This document shows, piece after piece, positions 6,679-33,119 of a DNA stretch of 64,000 nucleotides (its first letter is position 1; every line of letters begins with the position of its first letter). The notes under the pieces are model-generated. The model had not been told where the DNA came from. It searched no databases and worked only from the letters and a program-made list of their open reading frames with translations. The translations under genes were made by a program, and so were the position numbers. The stretch spans positions 129,830,001 through 129,894,000 of the forward strand of contig NW_024704742.1 in NCBI RefSeq assembly GCF_018977255.1, read 5' to 3'. Source of the DNA: Callorhinchus milii. Its lineage: Eukaryota.

Positions 6679-6726
6679 TTCCCGAGGGCGGCTCCACCAA
6701 ATCAGATGGAGACAGTGTTAGAACAG
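6679..6726 (+). CDS. CA9: CA9-like stalk exon (48 nt, phase 1-1)
   Basis: ttgtttccacag|TTCCCGAG...AGAACAG|gtaaga; open in phase 1: (V)PEGGSTKSDGDSVRT. Confidence 0.6.
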
Positions 6727-6869
6727 GTAAGATGTCTCTTAGCACTTTCACTTCAAACAATCTGGCTTGGTGTTAACTACACCTCAATGGTGCTTTCCAA
6801 TGGTGAACAATCTGTATTGAAAAAGGTTAATCTTTTGGTATACTGGCAGTTCTTTTACCTTTAATCTAG

Positions 6870-6914
6870 TTTTGACAAAGTTAAATAGTTCACTGACAAT
6901 CCCATTGGGGCCAG
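6870..6914 (+). CDS. CA9: CA9-like stalk exon (45 nt, phase 1-1)
   Basis: tcttttacctttaatctag|TTTTG...GGGCCAG|gtaagc; (V)LTKLNSSLTIPLGP, with LNSSL resembling human CA9 VQLNSCL. Confidence 0.6.
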
Positions 6915-7801
6915 GTAAGCAGAGTCCCAGCACAGATGAAGGAGGGCTAAGGGGATTGAATCTCATGGTTTATGAGGTTACAGTAATGGAACAGGTTGCA
7001 CGGTGCGTCATAATGAACGAAAGAGAGTGGGAAGTCACATGAGGCACAGAAACTGGAGAGTGAGACTTAACAACAATTGTTAATTGCGGCAATAAACCTC
7101 GCCCAGTTAGACTTTGACTCAAGGCAGTGAACCAACATATCTGGTCATGAAAAATTGGGACATCAATTTTACAATTTCAAGAGTGATTATGGGTTTGCTG
7201 CAGTTATTTGATTGATTGAGGCTGAGAGGCGAGAGTGTGAAATTGACTACCAATTGTCAGAAGAGCCAATGTACATTATGGTGGTTGGTGTTACCTAAAT
7301 GTCAGTGTCTTAATCTGAATAAAGGCATTGCGCTTATTAAGATAAATGATTTTTACATTTAATTGGATATAATGTTCAGGGGCAATGTTTATTTGCAACA
7401 TGTGCCCCAGCCCATAGCAGATTGTCCTTCCCCTCAGATAACACGCTGCCTTTTGTTGCCAACAATCAATCACAAGCAGTGGTAGCACATCATTCTTTTG
7501 TTTTGACATTCTTCTATCATAAATTCACTTCACAGGAGGAATTCCTCTATGGTACAATTTCATTCTAGACAGTAGAATATTGAGTAGAATTGAGTAGACA
7601 GTAGAATATCGAACATATTAAGGAATCCCATTGCAAAATGCCTCAGATTAGATCCATTATTTTCCTCTGATCCTATTTACTGGGGGAAAGAGTAAGGATA
7701 AGTGTGTCTTCTTGTGGAAGATCTTCCCTTTTAAAATGGAAGTGTTCTATGGAAGTAACATTATTATTATGTAATAATATAAAATACATAATAATTTATT
7801 C

Positions 7802-8085
7802 ACAACAACAATTATTTGCATGACGCTGAATCAGGGAGAGGGGGAGGTGACCATAGGCACGGTTGAGGAGGAAAATCTTCACACAAGATCTGAAGATGGG
7901 GAAGGAAGTGGTAAGGCGAAAGGATAGAGGAAGAGTGTTCCAGTGTTTTGGGGCATAGTGGCTGAAAGCCCAGGCACCGATGGTGGAATGGAGAGTATGA
8001 GGGACATCCAGAGCCAGTCGAGCAGAGGCAGTGGTTAGTAGGTTGGGGAGGAATCATGTTGGAGAGGTAAGGAGGTGAGAGCATG
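7802..8085 (-). mobile_element. L2 LINE 3' fragment (degenerate)
   Basis: PPYLSN...AFSHYAPKHWN-type L2 C-terminus on the minus strand. Confidence 0.7.
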
Positions 8086-9229
8086 AAAATACTGTTGCTT
8101 TAGAGAAAATGCTGCTGCCTTGGGGTAATTACGACAACAACAACAAGATGTATTTATAGAGCACCTTTCACGTCGGGAGATTTGTTTGATGGTTAGCTAC
8201 AATGATAGGCTTGGAATGTAGAGAAACTGGGAAGTATTGTTTAAAGAGGGGCGTTTCCTTTTTGCCGTTAGTTTTATTGAGCAGTTACAGTTTGTTCAAA
8301 TGTATTTATTGAATTAGCTATACCTTGTTAGGAACAGGTTTACAGTTAGTCAGAATGAAACTTGGACAGCGAGACAAGTTGTGTGTTTTGATTGGACCCT
8401 AAATCTCAGGCCATGGGTTTGCTTTTGGTTCTGATGAATCATTTACACACTGAGGTAAAACCGCCTGATATCCCGATCTTCACCTGTGAATTGCAAGTTG
8501 GAAAGATTCAATATATAAAACATGAGATCAGAGTCTCAATTGTTACCCTAATGACTCACGGGACTCAGGGAGACATTTCACGGTTTAATCAACTCGAACG
8601 TTTTGCCCCCAATGATCCAGGTGGATTCGGAAGAGAGCAGGACTATACAAGTAGGACAGCAAATCTAATGTAGTTCATTTACTTATTGAGCTATTGGAAA
8701 CTGTTACAAGTCCACTCTACCAGAGAATGCATTTCAGATAAATCTGCTTGAACATCTCAAAAAATTAGTAAACAAATTGGAATTCTATAAATCTGACAAC
8801 ATTTATAGAAATGTTACATTACAATATTTAAGGGGCCACGACACACAACACTGCCCTCAAATATATTCCTCTGTTGACTAATTTCACCAGAACCTTTGAG
8901 GCAGGAACATGGGACATGTTGGGATATGAGCGGTGTTGTATCAGCCTGTAGCAACAGTTATATCAAATTAAGAATCCAAGTGCGGTGTCCTTCGTCACAC
9001 TTGTGCTATAGGCGTTTCCTCATAGTTGTTCCTCATAATGATGTTGTGCTAAAAAGGTGTTTTGCTTTCATAGGTACAATCTCACAAACAACAGCTTGTT
9101 TATTACTATTACTATTACTGATTCACCATTGGCATTATGGAGTACAATAATAACCATTGCATTATATAATAACATACAATTTCTTCAACTACATTTCTTC
9201 TGCTTCCTTCTTTTCTTTCAACTCTACAG

Positions 9230-9250
9230 AAGGGAACCAGTTTAGGTTAG
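9230..9250 (+). CDS. CA9: CA9-like 21-nt microexon (phase 1-1)
   Basis: long polypyrimidine tract ...ttctttcaactctacag|AAGGGAACCAGTTTAGGTTAG|gtaagt; (E)GNQFRL in frame with the TM exon. Confidence 0.65.
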   Translation, partial: KGTSLG

Positions 9251-9594
9251 GTAAGTAGTCAATGTGATTTTACTCTCCTATGGAAGTGCACTGAGTTTCC
9301 ACAGGCCACAATAACATCAACTGCAATGAGTTCAACTCAATACTACTGCTAAGAATCACAATTATGTTCTGACCTTTGACTGAGAGATGTATCTCAAGAT
9401 ACTTTTCATTTCCTGTCAGAATAGGGGTAACCTTTACTTAATTAGCCAATGATGGATAATTCTAAACTTTATCCAAACCTTAATGAGCTGGAAAACTGCT
9501 CTAATAAATCAAGACACTTGTGTGGAATAAATTGGAATAGTGAATCAAGTTACTCTGATTAGATTAAAAATTGTTTTGTCCTAAGAACATAAGT

Positions 9595-9905
9595 AATAAT
9601 AATCATAATAATTGCATTTGATATAGCACTTTTCATGTCTTCAAGACGTCTCAAAGCACTTCACAGAATATAATATAGAGTGAATTGACTGTATATTTGT
9701 TGGCGAAATGCAGCAGCCAATTGCACACAGCAGTGTCCCACAAACAGTCATGGATTGAGTGACCAAATTGTTATTTCATTTGTTTGAGGGATTATTATCA
9801 GGCATGTGGAGTAAGGAAACTTGCCCAATGTTTTGCTCTGCTGAGAATCAAACCCGGGTCTCTCACTTGCAAGGCGAGTTCTCTAACCACTGCACTGCAG
9901 GATCC
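9595..9905 (-). mobile_element. tRNA-derived SINE (older copy)
   Basis: Reverse complement of the SINE family consensus from head to (tta)n tail. Confidence 0.75.
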
Positions 9906-10723
9906 TTTTGGAATGCACTGAACGATTTTCAGCTCTCTTTTAACTCAAACCAGTGATCCCCAAACTTGCGGAATCAGGAATCTGCCCAATTTCATATTCG
10001 GTGCTTCAACTGAGTTAGCATTCACAATCCCTGGTAACTATATCACAATATTAACCACCTTTTGTGAACAGGGAGGGCCAAAGCTTTAGATTTCTTTGTA
10101 CAATAAAAAGGGAAGGGAAAGAAAACATGGTACCACAAATGTTGGATCAAAAGCAGTAAAAAGTTGAATGTTTCGGATCTGAGCCCTTATAAATCTAACT
10201 TGTGTTATCTCATCCAATGGCAGTCTGAAGCAGACAATGTCAATGGAGCTTGATACAATGAAAAACACCCATCCTACTGTTCCCCAATCTCCCCTCCCCC
10301 ATTACTGCATCAAGATGCTTTTTAAATACTAATAATAATCCTTGCATTTGATATAGCGCCTTATCACGTCTTCGAGACGTCTCAAAGCTCTTCACAGAAT
10401 ATACTGTAAAGTGAAATGACTGTATATTTTGTGAGCGAAAAGCAGCAGTCAATTGCACACAGTAGTGTTCCACAAACAGTCGTGGATTGAGTGACCAAAT
10501 TATTATTATTTACTATTATTCTTGTTGAAGGATAAGTGAGTCTAGTGTTCTACTACCTTTTCCCGTCTGCATAAAGAAAAACTTCCTGGCATTTGTCCTG
10601 AAATTGCCCTTTATAATTCTAAACCTATGCCTTCTTGTTCTACCGTTTTAATGCATTCCTGGCTATCTGCTACTTTAAAGCATACTGTATCTTGAGTTCT
10701 GATTGCTTGTTATATTCCTACAG

Positions 10724-10814
10724 GTGATTTGCTGGCCATTATATTTGGGATCCTATTTGGATGTACTGCATTGGCCTTTGTACTGTATGTGATTAAACAG
10801 AAAAAAAGACAGAG
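10724..10814 (+). CDS. CA9: CA9-like transmembrane exon (91 nt, phase 1-2)
   Basis: ttcctacag|GTGATTTG...ACAGAG|gtaatg; GDLLAIIFGILFGCTALAFVLYVIKQKKRQR is a hydrophobic helix followed by a basic stop-transfer segment. Confidence 0.8.
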
Positions 10815-12186
10815 GTAATGTTAAAACAATTAGAACTCCTGTCATTCATTTCAAAATAAAGTTGAACCTTTTACCATGCAGTGATGCATACATTTACGCA
10901 AATTTGTAATTAATGTATATACGAAGAGTGGTGCTACATAATTAAAGACAATACTTTTGGGTGAACACAAAATAAGTTCCAGACAAAAAGAGCTGTTCAG
11001 GAACTGTGGTCTATTGTATCCTCCTCATTTAGATGGATTTCATAACAACAAGCTCTATTTCCAATTTTCAGGCATAATAGCAATTGGGTAAATTTATATA
11101 TTCAGCAAAGCTTTGCATGGCAAAGCTTTCTTCTTCTGATCAGCTGGCAAATAGGATCTTTGATACTTGAAGTTTTCCACCTTCCCTATTCAATAATCCT
11201 GTCAGACTGTTTAGGAAAACAGGGGGAGACCATCAAGCCTGTTCCTCCACTTTATTGGATCTTGACAGATCTTTTAATCCCAATTAAAGGGATTATTCCT
11301 ACCCTTTCATAACACTGTCAAATATGTAGGATTTGCCATGTGCATCAGTCTATGAGGATTCAGTGATTTTACTATTCAATTCAAAAAAATTTCTAAATTC
11401 TAAAAAAAACTTTGATTTTGAAAGCTCCTTATCACATCAAAATGTACCAAAGTGCCTCACAGTTATTTCTGGCAAGTGTAATGCCATGACAGAAGGAAAT
11501 CATTTGGCCCATCATGACTGAAGCTAGCTGCCCACTGGAGCTATCAAGACTAATCTTTTCACATAGTCTTTCCCTTTAAATAGTTTTCCTCTGGTATTTA
11601 TCCAATTCCCTTTAAAGTATTATAGACTCATTTCAACAGCCATTTAGGGTAAAGTATCCAACATGCTAAAAAATCTCTGAACAATAAAACTATTGTTGTG
11701 ATGAGGCTCTTCTTTAATGCATTATATGGTAAATGACAGTAGCTGATTTTGCATTTCTTGTGAAAAAGAGCAAATGCAAATCCAAATGTTTCAACAACAA
11801 ATTACATTTATATAGTGCCTTTCACATTGGGAGGACATCCCAAGGTGCTGGACAATCAGGGATTTGGGCCCGAGCAGGGGGTTAGGATCAGGGAGGGTAG
11901 AGAGCAGAGAGGATAGGGGTCGGAGGGCAACCAAAGGCTCAGTCAAAGAGGAGCGTCTTGAGACGAGCCTTGAAGGAGTTATGGAAATGACTTAAATTCA
12001 CGCTTAATTTGCAACCCTTTTTTTCTGCTGTTCATAAAGAAACGGCTTCCAAATGAAGTCTGAATTTAAGGATTTTCCACAATTCTTCGTAATCTTAAAA
12101 TGTAAGACTGAGTAAGTAGTTCTACAAGCAGAACTTTGAGCCTGCGGACATTTCAATTAATAATAACATATTGGGACCTTTTACAG

Positions 12187-12247
12187 GTTGAACACAGAAA
12201 GAGGACCGAAGGTGATCTACAAACCCACCGCTACCGCAGAGGCATGA
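12187..12247 (+). CDS. CA9: CA9-like terminal coding exon (cytoplasmic tail)
   Basis: ccttttacag|G TTG AAC...GAG GCA TGA; LNTERGPKVIYKPTATAEA*. The VIYKP motif is like the CA12 (VIYKPA) and CA9 (VSYRPA) tails. Confidence 0.75.
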
Positions 12248-12404
12248 GACCCCACACACAGTTGGTTCATAGGTTTGAAAGCTGGAATGAATGTGGGTAT
12301 TTGGGCAAAAGGTATTAATTTCTACAACAATGAATTCCCTGTTCAATATCTGAGGGCATTGATAATTCAGAAGTCTGGCCCCACACAATTTGAAGCTGCC
12401 TTTC

Positions 12405-12410
12405 AATAAA
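12405..12410 (+). promoter_or_regulatory. candidate polyadenylation signal of the CA gene
   Basis: AATAAA about 160 nt after the stop, followed by GT-rich tgtttcatgttttgtc; another candidate lies at 14681-14686. Confidence 0.4.
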
Positions 12411-13113
12411 GACTGTTCTTGGCAGCACCAAGTTCAGCATTGTTTCATGTTTTGTCTCAGATCATGATTTGCAATATCTGAGGAGGATAACCATAAACAA
12501 TAGTAATTTCCCCTGAAACTATTGATTTTAATGCACTAGAGACTGATGTTAAAAAATGTAAATTGTTTGATCACTGCTAATTAACTTTGAATGAATCAGT
12601 AAATATGTATGCGCTTTAATTGCATTTCCCAGCATGCGGTGAAAATTACAACCTACGCATGTGTTAGCACTAGCTGATTAGAAATTGGCCAACACAGGCA
12701 GTAACTACAGGCACCAACTGGTGCGAGGATATGAGTGGACCTCCCACACTTCCTCCCCCTGAACTCCATCACAAGGATTGAAGGCTCACAGATTGTAAGA
12801 GTGGACTTTCAGTTGTCAGGATCCAAAATCACACGATTGGTTCAGATGAAAATGGTCCATTGGCCAATTTGATCTTTCTTCTAGAATCCACCCCTAACAT
12901 CTTCCCAGCACCGAGCTTTTGTTTAACCTGTCGTTAATTACCCTCTGGGTAATGAAATACTTCCTGGTATCTGTCCTGAAATTGCCAATTGCAACCCTAA
13001 ACCTATATCATTTTGTTCTACTACCTTGGTACATCAAAAAGAAAATCAGGAGTAAAGCCAGTATCCTGCTACCCAATGCTGCAATCTATGGCTAGAAAGT
13101 CCAATGCAGCTTT

Positions 13114-13447
13114 ATAATAATAATAACAATAATAATAATCCTTGCATTTGATATAGTGCTTTTCACGTCTTCCAGACGTCTCAAAGCGCCTCACAGAATA
13201 TATTGTAAAGTGAATTAACTGTATATTTGTGGGCGAAAACGGCAGCCAATTGCGCACAGCAGCGTCCCACGAACAGTCGTAGATTGAAAATGATCAATTT
13301 ATTATTGTTTTGTTTTGGAGGGATTATTATTAGGCTCTGTGTGGAGTAAGGAAACTTGCCCAAGGTTTCGCCCTGACCTGCCTGGAATTGAACTCAGGTC
13401 TCTCGCTTGCAAAGCGAGTGCTCTAACCACTGAGCTGCAGGACTCCA
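13114..13447 (-). mobile_element. tRNA-derived SINE, full length
   Basis: Reverse complement of the 29561-29892 family; tRNA-like head and (tta)n tail. Confidence 0.9.
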
Positions 13448-13863
13448 TAGATATTGCAGACATAGTTTTGGTGTTGGATGTGGAGATGCTTTACATAGGT
13501 GCCTGTGGGAATGTTGCTATGTTTACTGAATGCATGTGGGATTTGCGATGCATGTAGGACCCAATCATAGATCTATTTATGGTAGTTGTGTTGTTTGTGG
13601 AAGAGGTGGGTGGGCTACACAAACATATAAATCTGTTAGCTTTTTAAGGTGATAGTTATAACAGTGTAAAACAACAACTTGCATTTGTGTAGCACCCTTC
13701 ACATGGGGTAGATTCCCGGAGCGCTTCACAGTGGTGGAGCAATATCAGCATCACTGAGGATACAGTTACAATGTTATCTTTGGAAAAAAACTCACTTTGA
13801 AAAATGATTAACTCTGGGTTTGTATACAGTAACGTATGATTTACGGGATCAGTGTGCGAATGT

Positions 13864-13897
13864 GGGGGTGGGGCGGGGGGGGGGGGGGGGTGGGGGG
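13864..13897 (+). repeat. poly-G tract (G-quadruplex-capable)
   Basis: ggggtggggcgggggg...gtgggggg. Confidence 0.7.
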
Positions 13898-16800
13898 AAG
13901 TGATAGCATGTTTTATTCCTCACTCCATGTAGTGCTGAAAAGAGAAAATCGGTAGAGGGAGGAGGATGTGTGAGGAGCACCATCCTTCATCTATTGATAA
14001 TTTTATGAGAATCTAATCTCTGAACTATGAATGATGTATCTTTATCTCCATAAAATGTTTATGCAATTTAAACATTCAGGATTTTGCTAATTTCACAACC
14101 TATCTGGTGAAAAATGATTTATCTTTAGTAAATTGTACAAGAGATGTAAATATCACATTTTATTCATGAGGAATGTAATATACTGTACAGTAGAACCCCA
14201 TTATAATGCATTTTGTTATAACATGGGTCTGCTTCTAGGGTTGTTGGCCCTGACATCTACTTAACAACAAAAATCCAAAATGTGTACAGAAAGCCAGACA
14301 GTTCGCTTCTAATTGCTTCCTCACTTCAAAGCACCTGCTGGGTACCTGGCACAATAAAAAAAAGGGCAACTTCTGGGTCATCAAGTCACCATTGGCAATT
14401 TCCTGCTTTCTGTACCTGCATGGGGAATTATTACTCGTGTTGGATTTATTGCGATTTTATGGACCTCAACTTTCATGTTGTAATGGGGCTCCACAAATAA
14501 AGGCATGTGATTACAAAGCATTTTCTTAACACTTTGATTGTGACATGTAATTTCACTGAATTTACCCATCTGTCTTTCTGACCTTGCCTATATGCTCAAC
14601 GAAATCCAACATTGTTTCAAAACCATGGAGTCTAACTAAAACTTGAAACTGATGTTTTATGTGACAAATGTTACTCATTTAATAAACTGTGGCATGTTTC
14701 TTGTGGCCTAATTACTTTTTTTTTACTAATCGTTTAAACTGTAGCACAGTTCCCAATGATTCAATCTTATCCCCATTAGATCAAAGTCCTCAGTTAGTCA
14801 AATTGTTCATCTTAAACTACAACAGAATTCTCTTTCCTGAACAGACTTAAGATTGAATGCAATGTTAGTTGCCAATACTTAACATCACAAGAGATTTAAT
14901 GAGTAAGCCAATCCCAATTACTGTGAAACATATCTCAAAAAATATACATAGGTCACAGAAATGATCGACTATGCACTGGTACTTGTGGACTGGCTGAAGA
15001 TGTTCTTTCATGTTTGAGACCTGGATTCAAATGCAGCCCAGTCTAATGAATCAAGACTCTGCTGCCTCTGCTGGGTGTAACATTCAATGTGGAGACCTGT
15101 AGCATATTGGTTAGAGCACTCGCCTCACTAGCGAGAGCATCCGTGCAACAACACCTGGTGGTGATCAACCACTTGGAGACTTCTGAACCAGATGTTCAAA
15201 GTGTGAAAAAAGTTCAATTTCCTAACATTGCCATCAGCCCGTTCAGCACAAAAATCTATCTCAAAGAATAAGTAAAAAAATTACAATTATTTTTGACTAT
15301 ATTTTGGACATGTTCAAGCATCATAATAGGTTTCATAGAGTAAAACTGTGATTGTTGCTTTATTTACTCATCTTCAACAGAGTGATCAGTGACAACAAAA
15401 ATTTACAATTGTATAGGGCCCGTCATGTCGGAAAGATATTCCAGTGCGCTGGAAATTTAGAAGATTAGCAGCATTTTCTTTTAAAAATAGGCTCACCTTC
15501 AATTTACTGACACAAGAGGGCAAAATTCTAGCAGGTTAAGCTTCAAGGGTCATGCTCGCTGACAGCCATCGGATTGTAATTGTATTGAACTATGTACTAC
15601 GTACTAGATTCTGCCTTCCAAAGTTCAAGAACTTACCAGCAAGGGACTAGCTTCCATATTACAAAATATTGTGAGCAGCTATCCTAACTTCCTGCTGAGC
15701 AGAAAGACATTCACCCCATTTCTGAACAACAGCAACAACGATTTGCAATTATACAGCACTTAATACATTCATACCTTCATACAGGTAGCGTCTCGGAGCA
15801 CTTAACTGCAGTGTGGTTTGATTTTTGAGTGTCATGGACCGTGAGTCAATAATAATAATAATAATCCTTGCATTTGATCTAGCGCCTTATCACATCTTCG
15901 AGATGTCGCAAAGCGCTTCACAGAATATACTGTAGAGTGAATTGACTGTGTATTTTGAGAGCATTACAAGTTAACACATTTCCCCATGCGAGAATGGGGT
16001 CAGAGTTTATAGACCAATGTATAGTCTGAGATTCCTAAAATATTCTATCGGCCAAAAATAGATTCCAATTTCTAGTTTCTGCCCCCACCCTTTGAACTCC
16101 TTCCCACAATCCCTTCACCTTGCTCCTACCCTTGCCCCCTTCAAGGCGCATCTCAAGACTCTCCTCTTCAACCCTTACAAATGATCATATATAACATTAT
16201 GCCTGATGCCCATGTAAGTAAATTGAGGCAGCAATGTGCACTAACTACTGAACTACAGTTTATCCTGTGAAGTACTTTGATATGTCTGGACCACATTATG
16301 AGGCGCTATGTCAAATTGAAGCATCATTATATTATAACTGCCCCACCAACTTGTGATTGTTGGTACAGATTCTGACTACATTATTATAACCGGTAGATTT
16401 TTTCCACAATTTTTTCAAGAGCGCTGATTTCATTCAATGTCAATTCTGCATATGCTGAAACACAGATCATAGTGAATGATTGGGTGATGCCTAAAATAGA
16501 TTGAACCAACTCGATTCCACTCCAAAAAAGGGTAGATTTAATTGCTGGGCACTTAATTTTTCCCATGTAGTGGATGATACCAACTGACGGAAGTTTGACC
16601 TAAACTTAAATTTGAACTCCGAACCCAGGTCAAAACTGGGTGGAGAATTCATCAACAAGAGGTGAAAAGCGTACATCAAATGCAAGGATTATTATTATTA
16701 TTATTATGTGTTATAATTAAAAAATAATTGGCAACTTGAGAGCAGCATTTGAGTGCTGATTCCTGGGCCATCAACCTAACTCAGCTTATATCCTGTGAGC

Positions 16801-18676
16801 CTGCAATAAACTGCAGTTCTGTGTCCAACACTGCAATGGTGACTTGGTTTCAATCATCATACCAACTGCCAGACTGCAATTTGAAACAATATGGAAAATA
16901 TAACTTCACTGATCATAATTTTCATTCCACATACAGAACTAATAGGTAAGGCACATTTATTGCATTGGGGATTATTTTGCTGACTGCTGTGAAATTATTA
17001 AAAATTTAAATTGAACAAATCAAGTGTCAGATACTCTGTAGCCAGATACTTACTAACTGTAGTGGAGCTACAGACACTTTTGAATCTGGATTGTACATAT
17101 CATCATGCAATGAGACAGCATGCAAATGCAATGTGAAATAATCAACAATATTCTCCATAAAACAACAACTCCTGTGAATGTTCAAAATCCAGAAGAGTGT
17201 TGAATTGTAATCGAGGATCCAATGAAACTTTTAGCTGCACCTTACTCATATTGAAGAAAACATCAAGACTCCGGTTCAAGAAGGATCCAAAATAAATGTT
17301 TGAATAATTTGTTTTCCAGAGGGTGTGCAGTCACAAAAATAAAACTTATACTTTAATTACAAAGTGCTACATACTACAGATAAATGTTATATATACTGAC
17401 AGTTCCATTTCATAAGATCATAAAAGACATCTGGATGAAGACCTTTCAGCTCATTTGGCCTCAACAACTTCCCATTACAGAATCGTACATAGGTCAAGCC
17501 AACTGGCCTCAGTCACTCTTCATGGTAATCAGTTCAATCTCTCATTTATCCTCTGTCAAAAAGGAATGATATAGTGTATGTCCTGCAACCATCCTTCCGT
17601 TGAATTTATATAGAACTATAAAATTGAAAACTTGGTATCAAAAAGGAATACGAATTTTAGCTTCTATGTAGATCAATTTTGTGAGAAATATTATGAAACA
17701 CTTTACCGTCACAAAACAAGTTATCCAGAGATCTACTGACTTGAATTTGCATTACACTACCTGTATGTTGAGACTACTAGAAGCTTAGTACTCCCTCTCC
17801 ATGGCTAACCACTACCACTTACCCAAGAAATTAAATAATCAAAGTTTAAATATGTCGAGAGAGTTTTCACAATTTCGATTTTTTACTTGATCTTTACTCA
17901 GAATCCAAGGTAGGTCTTGGGACATCCTCCTGACGTGAAAGGCGCTATACAAATGTAATTTTGTTGTTGTTGTTGTTGTAGGTTGGGGAAGGAGGAGAAA
18001 CTTATGTAGATCTATGGAGAGGTGTGAACTTCCCATGAGCATGCGGGGAAGGGGAGAGAATCAAATTATAGCCATCATCTTTGTATCAGCCACACTTATT
18101 CTTAGCTGCACCGTACAGCCATATACGATTTTGTCTTAAGCAAGTTATAAGCATTTAATAACCATTCTTTATTATTTGTGGCTCATGATAATGTCAAAAT
18201 ATGATTTTATGGGGAAACCAATAAAACCCTAATACGTGTCAGTTTCAGGTCGTGAATATCACCTGGCTTACTATCCATTGCATAAACATGATGTAAAGAA
18301 TAATATTTTCCTGGTTGTAATAAGACATGTATTTCTATTTTTAAAAAATACAATAATGTTAGTTCTAGGCTACTGCAAAAACTAAATCAATCATGGCATA
18401 AAGCTCTGTAATTGCAAATGTTTCCATTCATTATAAAGTTCTTTTGCACATAAGCACTCCCTTAAGAATTAAGTAGACCTGTGCTGAATTATTATCTTCT
18501 ATTTACAACTGTTCCTTGTAATGCTTAGTGGCATGATATTGCTTCATTCATCTTCACACTTGAAATAAGTTCCACTCTTGTTGTCCAGCACTGTGTAGTT
18601 CCTGATGGGACGTCATCCCACAGCAGTGATTGTTGTGAATTTCTTTTCTATCAGGAGACAGTCCATAACAACAATG

Positions 18677-18693
18677 CTATTGGAGTTTCTTAC
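18677..18693 (-). CDS. APH1: probable APH1 terminal exon 7, coding part (RKKLQ*)
   Basis: Perfect branch point TACTAAC (18714-18720), then tcctttgctttag|GT AAG AAA CTC CAA TAG. Phase matches exon 6. A minus-strand AATAAA lies at 18168-18173. No protein homology support. Confidence 0.5.
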
Positions 18694-18837
18694 CTAAAGC
18701 AAAGGAGTCAATCGTTAGTACATTCTTAACTTCGTACTCATTATTCTAACTTTTCTTAATGCCTTATTCCAAACCTTCTTTATCCAATTCTTTTTAAATG
18801 TCCGAAATGACCCTGCTCTAACAGAACCAGAACCGAG

Positions 18838-19053
18838 CCTTCAGCTCCCCTCTCGACTCTCTTCCCCCTTCTCGCTCCCTCCCATCCCTCCCCTCACCCT
18901 GACCATTTCCCCCCTCCTCGCTCCCTCCCCTCCCCTCACCCTGACCATTTCACCCCTGCTCGGGTCATGACCCAACTGTGCAGCGCCTTGGGACGTCCTC
19001 CTGACGTGAAAGGCGCTTTATAAATGGAATCTTGTTGTTGTTGTTGTTGTTGT
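18838..19053 (+). mobile_element. L2 LINE 3'UTR fragment
   Basis: C-rich 3'UTR, stem-loop and (gtt)n tail; same subfamily as 37505-38255 and 47850-48078. Confidence 0.85.
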
Positions 19054-20680: not shown

Positions 20681-21170
20681 TACTTACTGCTAAGTAGACA
20701 GAGGCGAATGGAGTAAGGAAACTTGCCCAACTTTTCGCCCTGCCCAGGAATCGATCGCAGGTCCTCCAGCCTGTGAGGCAAGCACTCTAACCACTGAGCT
20801 ACAGGACTCCACGAGTAACTCCCATAGTAACAATCTTGGAACTCCTGCTCTTGAATGCATTATCAGTGAAAAGAGTTTCTCACAATCAATTCCCTCGTAT
20901 CTATTCATTATGTTGAAACACCTCCACCCTATCAACAACCTTCTCTGCTCCAACAGGAAGGCTCCAAACACATCGGCAGAAACTAGTGTCTCTAACCCAA
21001 CCTTTTAGCCAGTGAAGGTGCATAGAATAGATAACTTTAGAAGGTGGGAAAAAGTAGAAATAATTTGAAATCAAAAGGAAACAGAAAAGTTGTTATAAGA
21101 ATTTTTCTGGCATCTGTAGGTTTTTTTCCTTTATATTATTCAAACTATCGATATAGATATAAAGACTTAC

Positions 21171-21294
21171 GTGTGAAGAAATGCTGAAGATTTTCAAATG
21201 ATCCCCCTGATGTGAAGTAAGCCCAGGCTGCCATGACAACCATAATCACATACGCTGGAATAAGGCTTACCTCGTAAAATGGATTCAGAAATGT
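21171..21294 (-). CDS. APH1: APH1 exon 6 (124 nt)
   Basis: ttctacccccag|ACATTTCTG...TTCACAC|gtaagt; TFLNPFYEVSLIPAYVIMVVMAAWAYFTSGGSFENLQHFFT; read-through reaches a stop at 21145 (RKSLYLYR*). Confidence 0.93.
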
Positions 21295-22788
21295 CTGGGG
21301 GTAGAAATGAAAAATATACTGTATTTTTACCAATATACCGAGTTTGAACAGCAATATAAAGCAAACATACATAACAGAAATTAAACAAGCATAACGCACA
21401 CTGAACCCTCTCGGCAGCTTAAACAAATGTTTCACTGATGGCTTGATGGACGAATCCCTGTCGGGTATGGAGCCATAGAGAGTAGCAAGATTGCACAGAG
21501 CTGAAATTCCAGCTTCTATTACGTGCCGCAACTTTAGCTATCTGTGATTATAATGGGGAAAGTCTTCAATGACTTGACATTGTAAATGCTGCTCTGCAAA
21601 TTCCTGTTCAAAATTTCATCCAATAGTTTTCAGCTTTTTCTTTTTTTCGAATTTTTTAAATCTATATACATATATTTGTATTATATTTATCTGTTCTGTG
21701 TGCCAGTCTTCCACTGGAGTGGCAGTAGAAGTGTTAACATCTGCTTCACTGTAGGTGATAGGGAAAAACATACACCAGCCAGAATACCCGCTGTAACTCA
21801 CTGACTCCTGCTGGTATCTATGAAGACAAGTTCTGACTCAGCCAGGATTTTTTTCCCCATTCCCCATATGGTTAAAAAGCCCTGTCAACATTCACTGTCC
21901 AGGCACACACGTGAAGAACAGTGATTTGGGCAAGATATCAGACAACTGCCAGTACCTGAGTTATTGCCCCAGCACAAGTTATTGCTTTAAGGAGGGGCAG
22001 AAAAGGAAGATAATAAAAGGTTCGGTTTATTGTTCACTTCTGACTAAAATATTCCCCTCTCTCATTGCTGCTGAAATTTTGGGGAGAAAAGATTGCAACA
22101 AGTTACTGAACGGACAAGTCTGTTGACGTATCCTTAGGTTAGCTACTACACCCAGAGGCGTCAGGTGAAAATATTTTGGGGTATAAATGTTGACCACAGG
22201 CTCCCGATTTCCAGGGACAGGCCCCAGATGAGGTATTGTGTCCATGGAGCCAAATTTGCCCTGTCTTGAGTTCAGCAACAAACTGAGCAACTACAATAAC
22301 ATTCTAAAACAGATACACTCCTCAGAGAAACTCAGCCACTAATCCAACAAGCTTCTCCAGTACTGCCAACGTCAGCAAATGTGGTGATTTCAAGTTTTTC
22401 ATAAATTTGTCCCCGGATTTGTTTTACAAAATGTAGTCACCCTACAAGGGGGGGTGCTGAGTAAAACTCAGTTAAAGGGTCAGTCCCCTTTAAGGCAAGC
22501 AGGTTGACAGCAATGCTTTACTTCTCTAATGAGGCACAGGAGATTTCATCTAATAAACCACGGAAATTTGCTCTTTCCCTGTATTCTTATTGCACAGGAA
22601 AATTTTGCATTTTCTTCGCAACAATAAAAATCAATTCTTCAAAGGTACTGTGATAAATATTTACCCTAATATTATTGCACGAGGCATCTATTCCACAAAA
22701 TTAAAGTTGAAACCATGAACATACTACAGGAGGAAGTGACAACATCAATGTGTAAAATGTTCAAAATAGAACAAAGCGGAAATCTCAC

Positions 22789-22916
22789 CAGTCCTGAGAC
22801 CAGGAAGTGTGTTGCAATGACTGCCATGATAGCCCACCACCGCTTATTCTCAAATCCATCAAAGAATATTACGCTCCAGAACGTATGCAGGAGAATGATG
22901 GCCATCGTCATAAAAG
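22789..22916 (-). CDS. APH1: APH1 exon 5 (128 nt)
   Basis: ttctttttgcag|CTTTTATG...GGACTG|gtgaga; AFMTMAIILLHTFWSVIFFDGFENKRWWAIMAVIATHFLVSGL. Confidence 0.95.
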
Positions 22917-23016
22917 CTGCAAAAAGAAAATACTATAGTATTTATTCAACCGTCAAGATTCCACGCCACCGGGATATTCACTGAAGCAAACGTGGGTGTT
23001 TGGATCCAATGATGGT

Positions 23017-23360
23017 AATAATAATCCTTGCATTTGATATAGCTTTATCACGTCATTGAGATGTCTTAAAGCACTTCACAGAATATATTGTAAAGTGGAT
23101 TTGACTGTATATTGTGGGTGAAACAGCAACCAATTCCGCAAAGCAATATCCTACAAATATCGTGGATTGAGTGACCACATTTTTTTAAGCTATTATTAAC
23201 TGTGGAAAGGGATCCGCCAATCAACTAACAACAGGGTTCCTACTTTTGATGGAGTAAGGAACCTTGCGTGTGAAGTAAACTTGCCTCAGGTTTTGCTCCA
23301 TCCAGGAATCGAACCTGGGTCCTCTCACTTGCGAGGCAAGTGTTCTAACACTATGCTACA
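23017..23360 (-). mobile_element. tRNA-derived SINE (older, longer subfamily)
   Basis: Tail, body and tRNA head in reverse orientation. Confidence 0.75.
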
Positions 23361-25114
23361 AACATGATAAACTGCAGGTCTATGGAAGTGGACAGAATTA
23401 TTTCATACCTTGTATGAAATAGTATTAAATTGGTGTTTAGTACTAAATTGTTAGAACTTTACAACTTTCCTAGCTCTGGACTCCTCAGGCTCTCAGGGTA
23501 AATGGTATCACCCATACAAGAGAAGTAATAGTTTGACAAAAGAAACCAACCAATTTAAGAAAAAAAGACATTATTGAAAACAGCATGTTTATTTCAGGTT
23601 ACCTGGAATATCCATCAGTCGTGCTTTTGTGAGTATACTTCAATGGTAGATTCTAAACATTTCCTTAACTATTTATAAATGGGGGAAAATCCTTTAAAAA
23701 AATCATTCAGTCAATGTGCAATGTAGCCCCGCAGTGCACTCATTTAATCAGGATGAAATGTTTAAAACAGAGCCTTGTTCATTTTTTATATAACTTTTTA
23801 TTTTATAAAATAATTAGTGGAAAAATTCACTGCTGTGAATTATACTGGAGTTCAATGTGTTTTTTCCTGGTTTCATTTGGCAAACATAGCAAATTATTTG
23901 GCTGACTCACAAGTACTGAACTTGAGTTTTAACAGTAAAGCATTATCTACCAGTTGGGGGTGTCAGCTATTTTAAATACTATACACATCAAGCTGAGAAA
24001 ACTATTTAAATATCAGCAGGTCTTCTGTGTGGTACAGAGCAGAACTGAACATACAAAATTACAGCACGTTCAATCCATCCGTCAAATGTTGATTCTCGAG
24101 CATTTCAAGAGCAACACTTCAACCACTGTGTCCTCATGGGAGATTCTGTCCCTCAACTCATGACATTGAACAGTATTAATCCTCATCTGCTATACCATGT
24201 TTGCTAAAGATCATGTTAGGTTGTTTAAATTTGAGTTGGCATATCAAATACAAGAAGCCCCACAAATATAGACCGCCCAACAAATTAAAAAAACAGCCAT
24301 TTATCAGCAATAAATTTGTGACCGCCATCTTATTTGGAAAAATCTGAAGGGAGTACTCCAGTGAAGTTAAAACATTACGACACAAAGCCCAGCCATTAAA
24401 CATTTAAAGTTTGCAGTTTTCCTTGATGTGGTAATTGTTGCCAACTGCTCGTTTAATACTTTTCTTCTGTATTTTATGTAAAATGTCAGAAATCAAGGAA
24501 TTCTAATTTTCTTGCAGCATAGTTGCAAACCAGTTGCAGACTTTTGTTAATCATTGATTAAGCCTCAAGATTACTTCATTAAACACAATATGTTAAAATT
24601 TGCAGTTTCATATCATTTGTACAAAACAGCTCATCAATATCAAAAGACAGCTATCATCTTCCTAAATCATATCATCAGCAAAACCACATCCACTTTTGAA
24701 CTTCTTACTGCGTAAAACAAAAATGTTTGGACTCGTGGGTAAGAGGGCTAACAATTGAGCCATTCTGCCAGTGAATAGACACAACACAGCAGCCACTACA
24801 AATGCTTGTACTTATAAAGGAATCAATGTAATGCTACATGATAAAATGACACAAAGAAAAAAACCACTAAGCCAGAAAGAAGTCTCTACAAGTGGAATCG
24901 GGGAATCTCACTTTCACTTTACACATGAAAATAAATGAATCTGAAAGCTCCCAAGAAGAAGAAAGGTTTGCCTGGTGACTCAGTCTTCCAATAAGCAAAC
25001 CCTACTGTCGTCCCATTACAGCATCAAGTGTTTTCCTAATTGGAAGGCTGGAATGTCAAAACCTGAAACAAAAGTTCTCAAAAGACTGTTTTTAGATGCA
25101 TGATTTGTATACTC

Positions 25115-26621
25115 GTGGAATCCTGTAGCTTGTTGTTTAGAGCACTCGCCTCGCAAGCAAAAGGACCTGGGTTCGATTCCCAGCAGGGCGAAACTTTGGG
25201 CAAGTTTCCTTACTCCACATGCCTCTGTTCACCTACCGGTTGTTAGTCAATTTCAGATCACCTTTCTGGGGGTAATAATTCCTCCAAGAAAATAAAATAA
25301 AAATATAATTTGGTCAATCAATCCACGATTGTTTGTGGGACTGCTGTGCACAATTGGCTGCCATGTTTCTCCCACAAAAAAATATACAATCAATTCACTT
25401 TACAGTATATTCTGTGAAGCGCTTTGAGACGTCTCATAGACGTCTCAAAGACTCAAAGTTCGAGTCCTACCTCACAAACCACCAGCAGTACAACTGGACA
25501 AACGGCTTCTCCTCCCACTCTCACCCAGTCACCTGCAGGGTACCCCAAGGATCCATCCTTGGCCCCTTCCGCTTTCTGATCTACATGCTCCCTCTTGGGG
25601 ATGTCATCTGCAGACATGGGGTACATTTCCACACGTATCCAGATGTCACCCAACTCTATTTTTCCACCCGTCTTTGCGACCCGCAGTCCCCTGATGTTCT
25701 GTCAGCCTGCCTGTCAGATCTCAGGGGCTGGATGAGCGCAAACTTCCTCCAGCTGAACGTTAACAAGAGGAAGCCATACTCTTTGGCTCTCGTCAACGTC
25801 TAAAATCTCACGGCTTTCACCTCCTCCACCTACCCGACCTCCCCCTAAAACTCTCCGAACCCATACGCAACCTAGGCATCAGGTTCAACCCCCAATTATC
25901 CTTCCTCCCCCACATCCGGTCCCTCACCAGCACCACCTCCGACGCATCACCCGTCTCTGCCAATACCTCTCCCAAAAAGCCGATGAAACACTGGTCCATG
26001 CCTTTGTCACCTCTCGGCTGGACTACTCTAACGCCATCCTCACCGGTCTCCCATCCACTAGCATCCATAAAATCAAAATCATTCAAAACTCTGCCGCCCT
26101 CATTCTCACCCGCACAAAACTCCGCTCCCCGATTACCCCAGTCCTTGCCAGACTGCACCGGATGCCTATCCCAGAGAGGATCGACTTCAAGATCCTCACC
26201 TTTGTATTCAAGTCCCTGCACTCCTCTGCACCCCCCTACCTCTCTGACCTCCTCTCTCCTCAAAACAGTACCCGTTGCCTCCATTCCTCCGGGTCTGGCC
26301 TCCTCCTCTTCTCCCAAGTCCTCCGCTCCATCCTCGGCGGCTGTGTCTTCAGCCACTATACCCTGAGGCTCTGGAACTGCCTTCCTCACTCCCTTCACCT
26401 CGCTCCCTCCCTTCCCATTTTCAGGTCTCTGCTGAAGACCTTTCTTTTTGACCGTGCCTTTGGTCACCTTCCTCCCCCCGGTTCGGTCCCGGGATCCGTT
26501 ACTGTAAAGCGCTCTGAAACGCCGTCCGGCGTGGAGGGCCCTATATAAATCCAGGTTGTTGTTGTTGTTGTTGTTGTTGTGATAAGGCACTATATCAAAT
26601 GCAAGGATTATTATTATTATT
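25115..26621 (+). mobile_element. tRNA-derived SINE split by an L2 insertion (L2 at about 25455-26580)
   Basis: SINE head at 25115. L2 RT motifs VPQGSILGP..FLIYMLPLG..YPDVTQLY, C-terminus and (gtt)n follow. The SINE tail resumes at gataaggcactatatcaaatgcaagg. Confidence 0.9.
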
Positions 26622-26783
26622 CTCAAGCTTTCTTGGATTTAAGCAAGAAACAAGAGAATTATGAAAGTAGTTTATTTCTGAAATAATAATAATAATAATC
26701 CTTGCATTTAATATAGTGGTTTTCACATCTTCTAGAAATGTTAGAAAAAAACACAAGGTGGTTTCAGTAGCTATGATATTTAC

Positions 26784-26906
26784 CTGACGTGAGGAAATAA
26801 TACTGAGAATCATGAAAGATGCCCACGGTCCCTGGTCCTGCTGAATCTGCAAGGATGTTGACAACTGAGAAAGCTCCACTCATGATTCCAAATCCCAGTC
26901 CTCCCA
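26784..26906 (-). CDS. APH1: APH1 exon 4 (123 nt)
   Basis: ttttttttcag|TGGGAGG...ACGTCAG|gtaaat; VGGLGFGIMSGAFSVVNILADSAGPGTVGIFHDSQYYFLTS. Confidence 0.95.
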
Positions 26907-27060
26907 CTGAAAAAAAAATGAAATGTTGTAAATGTAATCTTAATTCTAAAATGTAGCTTGTCATTCATTAAAAGAAATGTATGGGGCTGCAATTCAGATT
27001 CTCCTAAATAATAATAATAAACCTTGCATTTGATATAGCACCTTATCACATCTTCGAGAC

Positions 27061-27895
27061 AACAACAAAATTACATTTGTATAACGGCTTTCACATCGGG
27101 AGGACGTCCCAAAGCACTGGATAGACAGAGTTATGGACCTGAGCTGGAGTTCGAGGTTGGCAAGTGTGGAGGGCAGCAGGGGAAGCAGGGAGATCGAAAG
27201 CACGGTTGAAGAGGGGGGTGTTGAGATGGGTCTTGAAGGCGGCAAGGCAGGGGGTGAGGCAGATAGACTGCGGGATGGAGTTCCAGAGGGTGGGGACAGA
27301 GTGGCAGAAGGCCCACCCGCCAATAGTGGGGCGGGCGAGGCGGGGAACATGGAGCAGGCTGGAGCCCGCTGATTGGAGGGAGCGAACAGGGTGGTAAGGG
27401 TGTTAGGAGGTCGCAGAGGTAGGGAGGAGCAAAGACCATGGAGGGTTTTGAAGGTGAGGACCAGGATCCTGAACTGTATCCTCAGTGGAGTCGGGCGAGG
27501 ATAGGAGTGATAAGAGTCACAGAAGCTTAGTGTGGGAGATGATGAGGGCTGCAGAGTTCTGGATAATCTGCAGCCTATGGAGGGAGCAGTTGGGGAGGCT
27601 GACAAGCGATGAGTTTGCATAGTCAAGCCTCGATGTAATGAAAGCATGTATGAGGATTTTGGCGGCCTGCGGAGTGAGACAGAGGCAGAGACGGGCGATG
27701 TTGGGGAGGTGGGGGAAGGCAGAGCGGGTCATGGCGCAGATATGGGGTAGAAAGGATAGTTGAGAGTCGAGCAAGACGCCAAGGTTCTGGACTGGCTTAG
27801 CAAGGTGGAGTGTTCAACCATGGATGGTGATGCAGTCAGCGCCTGAGGTAAGGAGGCGCCGACGGGAGCCAATCAGGAAAACCTTGGTCTTATTG
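27061..27895 (-). mobile_element. L2 LINE 3' fragment inserted in a SINE
   Basis: LDSQLSFLPHI..HAFITSRLDYANS; host SINE halves at 27008-27060 and 27895-28050. Confidence 0.9.
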
Positions 27896-28184
27896 ACGTC
27901 TCAAAGCGCTTCAGAGGATACACTGTAAAATGAATTGATTGCGTATTTTGTGGGCAAAACGCACCAGTCAATTGCGCACAGCAGTGACCCACAAACAGTC
28001 GTGGATTGAGTGTCAAAAAAAATTTTTTAAAACATTTTTTGAAGGGATCCCGGAAAATGTATCCGTTGGCCTGAGATCACAAGGTACAGAGATAGAGAGA
28101 GAGAGAGGAGCTGATATTTAAGACCCAGAACAAATGTAAAGTCTCACTAGTCTTGTTTAAAAAGCAGTTTGCTTCATCACACCT

Positions 28185-28737
28185 CTGCCTTTGTCACCTC
28201 TCGGCTGGACTAATCTAACGCCCTCCTCGCCAGTCTCCCATCCACTACCATCCATAAAATCCATTTCATTCAAAACTCTGCCGCCCGCATTCTCACTCGC
28301 ATGAAACTCCGCTCCCCAATCACCCCACTCCTTGCCAGACTGCACCGGCTGCCTATCCCAGAGAGGATCGATTTCAAGATCCTCACCTTTGTATTCAAGT
28401 CCCTGCACTCCTCTGCACCCCCCGACCTCTCTGACCTCCTCTCTCCTCAAAACGGTACCCGTTGCCTCCGTTCCTCTGGGTCTGGCCTCTTCCTCGTCCC
28501 CAAGTCCTCCGCTCCACCCTCGGCGGCCGTGCCTTCAGCCACTATGCCCGAGGCTCTGGAACTGCCTTCCTCACTCCCTTTACCTCGCTCCCTCCCTTCC
28601 CATTTTCAGGTCTCTGCTGAACGCGCCTTTGGTCACCTCCCCCCCCCTCCCCCTGGCTCTGTCCCGGGATCTGTTACTGTAAAGCCTCTGAAACACCGAG
28701 GGCGCTATATAAATCCAAGTTGTTGTTGTTGTTGTTG
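28185..28737 (+). mobile_element. L2 LINE 3' fragment
   Basis: LARLHRLPIPERIDFKILTFVFK; same subfamily as the L2 ending at 26580; (gtt)n tail. Confidence 0.9.
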
Positions 28738-29560
28738 CCGCTCAAGCCAAGATTCATTCATTCTCTCTCTCTCTCTGTTACTCTGTGGCTGCAGTATGCA
28801 TAATCTACAGAATGCACAGCAGCAACACACCAACACTCAGGAGAACAAAAATAGTGATCATCATGGGAACCCCATCAAATCCAAGTTTCGGTCCAAGTCA
28901 CTCACTATCGGACTTGGACATATCCAATAGGGGGTTGAAGAAAATTTTTTTGGAAGTCTCAACCCCACATTATTGTGGGAGCATCATTCACAAGGACTAA
29001 AGGGGTTTAAAGAGAAGGCCCATCACCACTCTTACAGTGCAACTAGGTGTGGGCAATCAACACTGGCTATGTGACTCACATCCCAAGTGTGTATAAAAAA
29101 ATTCTCCTAATCCATTTATAGAGTACTTTGGGGTTGCAGCCACTATACTTCAGATTTGATCTTACCTTCTCCAAGCTTCTCATAAGGCCCATTAAAGTTC
29201 ACTTAGAATCACAGAATCATAGAACTTGTGCTTTTTTTGAAAAATGTTTCACAGAATATTTAAGTCATTGATCTGCCACTGGCTGATACTCTCATGTACC
29301 AGTAAATGATTTATTTTAGCAGGTGGTATTCAAATTATGTTTGCCTTAAGGTCAACAAATACATCTTGTTTGATGTGCAAGTTATAAAAGCTTGATCTGA
29401 TAATCTTTACCATACACCGATCCCAGATTGATAGAATGATTAATGATAAATTAAATGGAAGAAGGGATACAGAGGGTATTTCAAACAGAATCTTTAGCAA
29501 TAAATCGATTACTTTCATCTCTAATAGAGTACAGATTCTCCAGAGATTCTCCAGATTCTC

Positions 29561-29892
29561 GTGGAGTCCTGTAGCTCAGTGGTTAGAGCACTCGCTTTGC
29601 AAGTGAGAGACCTGAGTTCAATTCCAGGCAGGTCAGGGCGAAACCTTGGGCAAGTTTCCTTACTCCACACAGAGCCTAATAATAATCCCTCCAAAAAAAA
29701 AACCAATAATAAATTGGTCATTTTCAATCTACGACTGTTTGTGGGACATTGCTGTGCGCAATTGGCTGCCGCGTTCGCCCACAAATATACAGTCAATTCA
29801 CTTTACAGTATATTCTGTGAAGTGCTTTGGGACGTCCTCCCGACGTGAAAAGCGCTATATCAAATGCAAGGATTATTATTATTATTATTATT
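29561..29892 (+). mobile_element. tRNA-derived SINE, full length (young)
   Basis: gtggagtcctgtagctcagtggttagagcactcgctttgcaagtgag..gagttcaattcc has A/B boxes and a TGC anticodon-like loop; 3' end shares the L2 stem-loop; (tta)n tail. Confidence 0.92.
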
Positions 29893-30214
29893 AGATGCAT
29901 ATATCTCATCACCGATTAGATAGTAATGAGTGACTTTTGACACCTACCTGAGAAATAAAAGAAAGCTGTACAGTATTTTATGTGGCTGTGACTTAGTCTC
30001 TTAAAAGTACCTTAAATAGCCACTGTATAATCTAAAAGTGGATTTGAACACCACTCAACTAATCCACGTTGTAATTCATCTATTCATCTGGGATTGCAAG
30101 CGATTTAAGAACTCGATTAAACCCTAAATGTCATTCCACAGTTTATGCATTGCCAGGCAATATGAACTGCATCCAGTACCACTGTTCTTACATTTTCTAA
30201 TAAAATGATCTTAC

Positions 30215-30288
30215 CATAGGCCATTTGCTGCACTGTTAGAGGTGACTGTCCATCTTCACTTAGTGCTGAGAGACCTTCGATGGCCTTT
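30215..30288 (-). CDS. APH1: APH1 exon 3 (74 nt)
   Basis: tttatcttttag|AAAGGCC...GCCTATG|gtaaga; KAIEGLSALSEDGQSPLTVQQMAY. Confidence 0.92.
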
Positions 30289-30897
30289 CTAAAAGATAAA
30301 AATTACTTATCAATTATGTTCAGTAATTATAATGCCCTTCTTTATAGCACTGCATCATTTACAGCTGAATAAGTGTGAACGGTAATGGGATTCCAGATTT
30401 TATATGTAGATATTGAATATAAATCAAGGAAATTAAGTTGAATTTATACAAGACATTGGTTAGACTTTAAGTACTACATGCAATTCTGTGCCTCCGATTA
30501 TAGAAAGGATATCAAAGCCATGGAAACAATGCAGCATCAGCTCACACAAACGATAGCAGTGATATAAAATGATACCACAAATGATACGAGGGAAGGGAGT
30601 ATATATTGATTGGCAGTATCTTGCAAGGAGCTGAAGAGCAAAGGGATTTAGGAGGGTAGGTACAGAAGTCATTGAAAGTTGCATTGCAACTGACAAAGGC
30701 TGTAAAGCAAACTAATAGGGTTATATGTACAGGAGCATAATGATAACTTTGTACATATCATTGGTTAGGCCGCAACTGGAGTACTGTGTCCAGTTACAGG
30801 CACCTCACTTCAGAAAAGATATTAAGGTCTTAGAGCTGTGCTCAGTGAAGAAGTAACCTATACATTTCTACCATGATATACTTCAGCATCTCAATTA

Positions 30898-31225
30898 GTG
30901 GAGTCCTGTAGCTCAGTGGTTAGAGCACTCGCTTTGCAAGCGAGAGACCTGAGTTCAATTCCAGGCAGAGGGCGAAACCTTGGGCAAGTTTCCTTACTCC
31001 ACACAGAGCCTAATAATAATCCCTCCAAAACCAAAAACAATGATAAATTGGTCATTTTCAATCTACGACTGTTTGTGGGACATTGCTGTGCGCAATTGGC
31101 TGCCGCGTTCGCCCACAAATATACAGTCAATTCACTTTACAGTGCGTTCTGTGAAGCGCTTTGGGACGTCCTCCCGATGTGAAAAGCGCTATATCAAATG
31201 CAAGGGTTATTATTATTATTATTAT
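30898..31225 (+). mobile_element. tRNA-derived SINE, full length (APH1 intron 2)
   Basis: Same family as 29561-29892. Confidence 0.92.
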
Positions 31226-31479
31226 CCTGTCAGGATTAGTACTGAAAAAAATTCTTGCACTTGCTCCCAACGAGGGAGGAAAAGTCTTTTCTATATATTC
31301 CTTAATGGTTTTGCTGCTTGCATGTCTAATCAGTTCCCTTTTAAACAATTCTGTTGCCCACTGTGGAAAGTGATTACCACAAAGGTCACTTCCGGTAATG
31401 AATCCAAATTTTTTGTCTAACATTTCAGAGACAAATGGGGATGGGAGGATTGGCACAAAGGTTCACACGTTATACATAC

Positions 31480-31650
31480 CTTAGCAGTTTGTAATAAGCA
31501 AAGCGAAAGACTTCCTGCAGTAATACTGAGAACATGACACCAAAGATGATGAGTGTTTTCTGTAGCTGTGCATCATTTTCATTGCTAGCCTTTACAGCAA
31601 TAAACCAAACTAATGAAGATAGGAGCAAGGACAGCAACCAGAAAAAGGCC
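31480..31650 (-). CDS. APH1: APH1 exon 2 (171 nt)
   Basis: tgtattatag|GGCCTTTTTC...CTGCTAAG|gtatgt; AFFWLLSLLLSSLVWFIAVKASNENDAQLQKTLIIFGVMFSVLLQEVFRFAYYKLLR. Confidence 0.95.
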
Positions 31651-33115: not shown

Positions 33116-33119
33116 TACA

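Follow-up and report, generated by a model that had tools for sequence, protein, structure and literature searches.

A third group of vertebrate APH1 genes beside a membrane carbonic anhydrase in Callorhinchus milii, very likely a genome-duplication copy

We analysed a 64,000-nucleotide window of the Callorhinchus milii genome (assembly GCF_018977255.1, contig NW_024704742.1, positions 129,830,001 to 129,894,000), in which an APH1 gene on the minus strand and the 3' end of a membrane carbonic anhydrase (CA) gene on the plus strand converge tail to tail, with 6.4 kb between their stop codons (Table 1). The gene encodes a full, spliced APH1-family protein and belongs to a group, here termed C, that from sharks to birds stands apart from APH1A and APH1B (groups A and B). 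We consider it very likely that this third APH1 paralogue is a genome-duplication copy on the CA9/TPM2 block.

APH1 and carbonic anhydrase genes in the window

APH1 exons 2 to 7, with an AG acceptor on every one and GT donors on exons 2 to 6, translate to exactly residues 39 to 249 and the stop codon of a C. milii protein, V9KJC1_CALMI (P0002); candidate poly(A) signals lie near 18168 or 16956. This protein matches the Aph-1 domain over its full length (PF06105, 320.7 bits, profile positions 1 to 231 of 231) and carries Gln83, Glu84, Arg87, Gly122 and Gly126 (the GxxxG motif), His171 and His197, residues which matter for complex formation and activity according to the available part of PMC8745412. 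An original prediction made from the nucleotide sequence had described the APH1 gene as intact, which was not borne out: exon 1 (residues 1 to 38) gave no match in a search across the whole 64-kb window, and exons 2 and 3 are present twice. Its placement of APH1 on the minus strand converging on a membrane CA was confirmed by exact exon matches to C. milii proteins for both genes, and the CA transmembrane exon was found on the plus strand as it had proposed.

The three CA exons, with or without an alternative microexon, encode exactly the C-terminal 73 amino acids (isoform X1, P0405) or 66 amino acids (isoform X2, P0121) of the C. milii protein that NCBI names CA9, and the first AATAAA after the stop codon is at 12405. 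The catalytic exons lie outside the window, and the original prediction therefore drew only on the stalk, transmembrane segment and tail.

Table 1. Positions of the APH1, CA, RAB-like and repeated features in the 64-kb window
Feature	Position	Strand	Basis or remark
APH1 (C type) exon 2, 171 nt; Gln83, Glu84, Arg87 and C-diagnostic Lys58	31480..31650	-	100% to P0002
APH1 exon 3, 74 nt	30215..30288	-	match to P0002
APH1 exon 4, 123 nt; GxxxG motif	26784..26906	-	match to P0002
APH1 exon 5, 128 nt; His171 and His197	22789..22916	-	match to P0002
APH1 exon 6, 124 nt	21171..21294	-	match to P0002
APH1 exon 7, coding end and stop	18677..18693	-	yields C-terminus of P0002
CA (NCBI CA9) stalk exon, 48 nt	6679..6726	+	AG/GT; exact match to P0121 and P0405
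CA alternative microexon, 21 nt, isoform X1 only	9230..9250	+	AG/GT; supplies 7 extra residues of P0405
CA transmembrane exon, 91 nt	10724..10814	+	match to C. milii carbonic anhydrase 9 (P0121)
CA last coding exon, cytoplasmic tail and stop	12187..12247	+	exact C-terminus of P0121/P0405
Second copy of 2.1-kb block holding APH1 exons 2-3	34485..36572		99% identical to 29882-31984; probable artefact occupying the expected place of exon 1
RAB8-like exon 2, 61 nt	38415..38475	-	CAG acceptor, GC donor; best PDB match Rab-8A
Divergent RAB-like exon 1, 121 nt, ATG to GT donor	40692..40812	-	PDB Rab matches
Diverged (91-95%) copy of 36758-39049, with broken RAB exon 2 copy (~1018-1078; stop, lost donor)	1..1620		in a CA intron by the CA gene model

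Phylogeny, residues and distribution of the C group

A homologue search with the window-type protein was sorted over its best 120 of 278 matches into 112 C, 7 APH1B and 1 unassigned row, and the best 120 of 716 matches of a search seeded by mammalian APH1A added 108 new rows (100 A and 8 B); the profiles used were built from our own groups and are a sorting aid, not an independent test. For the trees we took 43 near-full-length rows from ~390 proteins, leaving out isoforms, partial models and a divergent bowfin APH1A. In vertebrate-only trees (37 rows, with dog APH1B also dropped), both LG+G4 and LG+C20 recovered C (15 rows) at 100/100, A (14 rows) at 100/99-100 and B (8 rows) at 100/98-99. 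Rooting the LG+G4 tree with five invertebrate outgroups gave 100/99 for vertebrate APH1 as a group, 100/99 for A, 99/99 for B and 96/92 for A+B, and under a mixture model with distant invertebrate outgroups the vertebrate group received 70/76. Approximately unbiased (AU) tests rejected trees joining the window protein and its skate counterpart with A (p 0.0063) or with B (p 0.0096). By both trees and AU tests the window protein does not nest in APH1A or APH1B, and together with the presence of a separate APH1B in C. milii this upholds the earlier proposal of a third copy outside these two groups. Chondrichthyan, ray-finned and lobe-finned rows occur in each of the three groups, which places the origin of A, B and C before the jawed-vertebrate crown; one copy of each type is present in the coelacanth Latimeria (P0296 for A, P0367 for B and P0082 for C), and these are 61-67% identical pairwise.

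Lys58, Arg95 and Gly181 are found in 15/15 C rows, whereas group A has His/Gln, Lys and Ala at these positions. Residue 171 is Asn in the coelacanth and Gln in the lungfish C-type protein (P0082 and P0067). The C protein shares the Aph-1 family and assembly residues with APH1A (human 5a63_C and its gnathostome orthologues) and is 64% identical to mammalian APH1A, from which it differs in forming a separate group, in lying on another contig in the ray Narcine and in being a short-tailed protein of 249 rather than 265 amino acids. APH1B (human 8oqy_C; C. milii XP_007905945) is likewise of the Aph-1 family and 65.5% identical to C within C. milii, whereas C forms a separate group, lies on a separate contig and lacks the conserved 258-aa B-type C-terminus. 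The organization of the C locus also resembles what we take to be that of the human genes, APH1A presumably having seven coding exons, as C does, and lying tail to tail with a membrane CA, and APH1B at 15q22 presumably lying between an upstream gene of RAB8 type and a CA gene that converges on it. Rodent Aph1c is comparable in being a third APH1 gene in one genome; we take it to be a recent tandem copy of Aph1b, whereas C is older than the split between sharks and bony fish.

Among the matches listed, C records are named for chimaera, sharks, rays, bichir, sturgeon, gar, bowfin and several teleost orders including zebrafish (NP_001025300 is C-type), and further for coelacanth, lungfish, turtles, alligator and other crocodilians, lizards and birds; for nine elasmobranch species names there are records of A as well as of C. 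Named mammals and amphibians are absent from the C records listed, which suggests loss; in the same listed matches platypus and newt are represented by both A and B, and caecilians by one or the other. Within these listed matches, none of the named bird proteins was classed as a true APH1B (the two bird 'APH1B' entries given a score are of C type), APH1A was not seen in any teleost, and C was not seen in any spiny-rayed fish. Across databases the same C orthologue is named APH-1A, Aph-1b, Aph-1b-like or 'uncharacterized', so the mislabelling as APH1A-like or Aph-1b-like anticipated for this gene is present in the records. Two C copies, 96-98% identical, were seen in three bird species (P0035/P0056, P0047/P0038 and P0077/P0062), with one copy on an 88-90-Mb contig and the other on a smaller one; these are possibly Z/W gametologues.

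Genomic setting and origin of the third paralogue

The C-type gene and its CA lie on a 139-Mb contig of the C. milii genome and the true APH1B (P0365) on its own contig of 7.6 Mb, so that a separate APH1B locus exists in the same genome, as the original prediction had asked to be checked. The C gene of Narcine (XP_069780296) directly precedes the CA orthologue (XP_069780297/8) in accession number, both being on a single contig of 375.7 Mb, whereas the APH1A of this ray lies on a different contig of 257.7 Mb. In two gene models from teleosts (P0026, named as a beta chain, and P0436) tropomyosin and a C-type APH1 are joined into one protein, implying an adjacent tropomyosin gene on the same strand and agreeing with the TPM2-type linkage that had been claimed; the tropomyosin part of P0026 scores 273 bits against beta and 260 bits against alpha-1 chains over the same 166-residue PDB chains. 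Among the matches listed, many bird C records are on contigs of 75-110 Mb and bird APH1A is on contigs of a few Mb. In its available text, PMC6354393 places APH1 among 11 families that mark a paralogon of the two early vertebrate genome duplications (1R and 2R) with chicken Z as a member chromosome, based on human, chicken and gar, and states that families outside the four full quartets have lost one or two members. That study's paralogon 1 thus has APH1 as a 1R/2R neighbour family, as here, and the available text gives no member count and names no third APH1. A 1R/2R pairing of chicken chromosomes Z, 10, 25 and 28 was not found in the available text of PMC7269912, PMC10013865 or PMC8302630. 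For the neighbouring gene family, the available part of PMC5723433 pairs CA VI/IX against XII/XIV, a pattern matching that of C versus (A,B) in the rooted LG+G4 APH1 tree.

Several results weigh against a genome-duplication origin beside CA9, beginning with the identity of the CA. CA9, CA14 and CA12 all have in common with the window CA a signal peptide, an alpha-CA domain, a stalk, a transmembrane helix and a short tail. The C. milii protein matches human CA9 best (242-255 bits, versus 230-231 for CA14 and 201-203 for CA12); its Narcine orthologue (P0123/P0407) scores 236.6 bits against mouse CA14 and 234.2 against CA9 and carries the NCBI name CA14, and 'putative carbonic anhydrase 14' is also the name of the Atlas cluster closest to P0121. 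The best human match of the C. milii protein agrees with the CA9 identification, but with nearly equal CA14 and CA9 scores for the ray orthologue the call is weaker than the original prediction had it. The catalytic domain begins near residue 37, so the window CA is without a long acidic N-terminal domain, which we take to be a feature of human CA9. We infer from these sequence comparisons that the neighbour of the C-type APH1 is probably CA9. As the CA14-labelled P0123/P0407 are orthologous to the CA9-labelled C. milii protein, one of the two names must be wrong. Also on the unfavourable side, neither tblastn nor a motif scan found a tropomyosin in the 64-kb window, and His171 is kept in 13/15 C rows and replaced in those of coelacanth and lungfish. 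In the rooted LG+G4 tree C is only weakly recovered as a clade (70/81), and under the mixture model with two long outgroups (32 rows) C received 51/43 and the branching order, A+B included, was not settled. No lamprey, hagfish or amphioxus APH1 was identified among the rows, and the duplication is accordingly dated only as before the split between sharks and bony fish.

Some of these points, together with others, would fit the window gene being simply the elephant shark APH1A beside CA14, corresponding to the paralogon of human 1q21. Its best human match is indeed APH1A (358 bits, against 297 for APH1B), NCBI names it APH-1A-like, the ray CA is labelled CA14 with CA14 and CA9 tied, and no other C. 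milii APH1A appeared among the best 120 of 716 matches of the APH1A-seeded search. However, a separate APH1A of 265 aa exists in sharks and rays and joins mammalian APH1A with support of 99-100, the AU test rejects the grouping of window, skate and A as given above, and APH1A and the CA lie on different contigs in Narcine. We regard this explanation as already largely refuted and extremely improbable. A closer competitor accepts an old third paralogue and has it arise by a segmental CA-APH1 duplication before the jawed-vertebrate split instead of by 1R/2R, or has a CA14-like rather than a CA9 neighbour. The unsettled root under the mixture model, the closeness of the CA9 and CA14 scores and a view of the neighbourhood that takes in two or three genes only are all compatible with it; nevertheless, tropomyosin and a RAB8-like gene also belong to the block, the APH1 family is placed in a 2R paralogon with chicken Z in the available text of PMC6354393, and bird C and APH1A records differ in the contig sizes noted above. 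On balance we judge this competitor unlikely.

Under the preferred interpretation of a genome-duplication paralogue, C would have survived since the two early genome duplications of vertebrates as part of a tropomyosin-RAB8-APH1-CA block whose human remnant is CA9/TPM2; the human lineage would have lost C but retained CA9 and TPM2. Judging from its conserved residues, the C protein is predicted to be a gamma-secretase scaffold subunit that binds nicastrin and presenilin via the same residues as APH1A and APH1B, and may be used as an alternative to either in the complex. A broader scheme, which we find plausible and just short of probable, is that jawed vertebrates began with three APH1 genes that were then sorted by lineage, leaving humans with A and B, zebrafish-type teleosts maybe with B and C and no A, and birds maybe with A and a Z-linked C (in some species also W-linked) and no true B, the same block also holding a decaying fourth member of the RAB8A/RAB8B/RAB13 family. 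If this is true, zebrafish and chick models of gamma-secretase and Notch contain a subunit without a human orthologue, which could mask aph1b knock-outs.

This would be an ordinary kind of event, an ohnologue absent in humans, and involves no new mechanism. Its interest lies in the composition of gamma-secretase, in which the identity of APH1 is one of two variable positions and humans have two APH1 genes, according to the available part of PMC4075077. A third APH1 type would alter the count of possible gamma-secretase complexes in fish, reptiles and birds, and C is a naturally occurring variant with which the separate specialisations of APH1A and APH1B can be explored. In the parts available, zebrafish reviews give a single aph1/aph1b (PMC4075077, PMC13050203); the C-type NP_001025300 is missing from these lists, and knock-out work may therefore overlook it. 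No paper that names a third ancient paralogue of APH1 came up in a literature search whose coverage excluded figures and most subscription journals. The searched supplement text of PMC6354393, which excludes one scanned file, had no APH1 match, and the available part of PMC2770060 does not treat vertebrate APH1 paralogues. A third APH1 member may nonetheless already be drawn in Fig. 3 or the Dryad trees of the 2019 study (PMC6354393).

The exon repeat, RAB-like exons and other features

The two copies of the 2.1-kb block holding APH1 exons 2 and 3 differ by one noisy patch (~70 nt) and one base. Four of 24 listed sequencing runs were compared with positions 32000-41500, and the results that follow are those among the matches listed. 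Runs X1 and X2 are genome-sized contig sets of one study, their kind not being on record; X5 and X6 come from one study, and the RNA nature of their contigs is a guess. In X1 and X2, single contigs connect the right end of the repeat to the sequence flanking the first copy, others lose their fit at 34485, where 68 and 46 letters stay unmatched, and both sets carry the extra base of copy 1. This junction behaviour and the extra base make copy 2 most likely an assembly artefact, and a real tandem duplication of exons 2 and 3 was rejected on the same contig evidence. Contigs of X5 and X6 (1587 and 1546 nt) match exon 2 exactly, lack the intron between exons 2 and 3, which has GT-AG ends, and run 225 and 197 letters beyond exon 2, as exon 1 and a leader would. 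Database models of the gene are also affected, the NCBI model of the C-type APH1 on the 139-Mb contig being cut down to 173 aa and the model of another database having a spurious start (P0389, P0390). The repeat and the missing exon 1 are thus most likely assembly faults.

Two RAB-like exons lie upstream of APH1 on the same strand. Exon 2 matches Rab-8A best in a PDB search (E 9e-6, 16/21 identical), with Rab-1 a close second, and X1 contig 5 spans it with a single difference; exon 1 has Rab-11A as its best PDB match (E 8e-6; Rab-8A ~1e-3), and contigs of X1 and X2 span the whole of it with 0-1 differences. In exon 1 the P-loop Ser/Thr and switch-I Thr positions, which we take to be GTP-binding sites, are altered, and a motif scan of the window for later RAB exons found none. 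Human RAB8B presumably holds the same place relative to APH1B. The exons are possibly a decaying fourth RAB8A/RAB8B/RAB13 ohnologue, or part of a gene whose other exons were lost alongside APH1 exon 1 in assembly.

These exons also invite a different account of the repeat, in which it is real and feeds a rearranged transcript, for example with RAB exons 1 and 2 spliced in frame to APH1 exon 2. The order of elements in the window would suit such a transcript, RAB exon 2 and APH1 exon 2 are both in phase 2, so that an in-frame splice would fit, and an older 91-95% duplicate close by indicates that the region does duplicate. Against this, the X1 and X2 contigs misfit the left junction of copy 2, enter the flank of copy 1 and carry its base, P0002 has a normal exon 1, and beyond exon 2 the X5 and X6 contigs show no RAB exon joint among the matches listed. 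We consider a RAB-APH1 transcript very unlikely and retain assembly faults as the explanation.

The older duplicate at the left end of the window (Table 1) sits in a CA intron by the CA gene model and probably continues to the left of the window. Three unique stretches, at 48290-48600, 50115-50514 and 52811-53044, look coding; a Pfam scan of the open reading frames 52811-53044 and 50288-50514 gave no useful match, and the former was also without an Atlas match. Between the RAB exons lie two diverged copies of a ~135-nt unit (39892-40045 and 40440-40575), both open on the plus strand.

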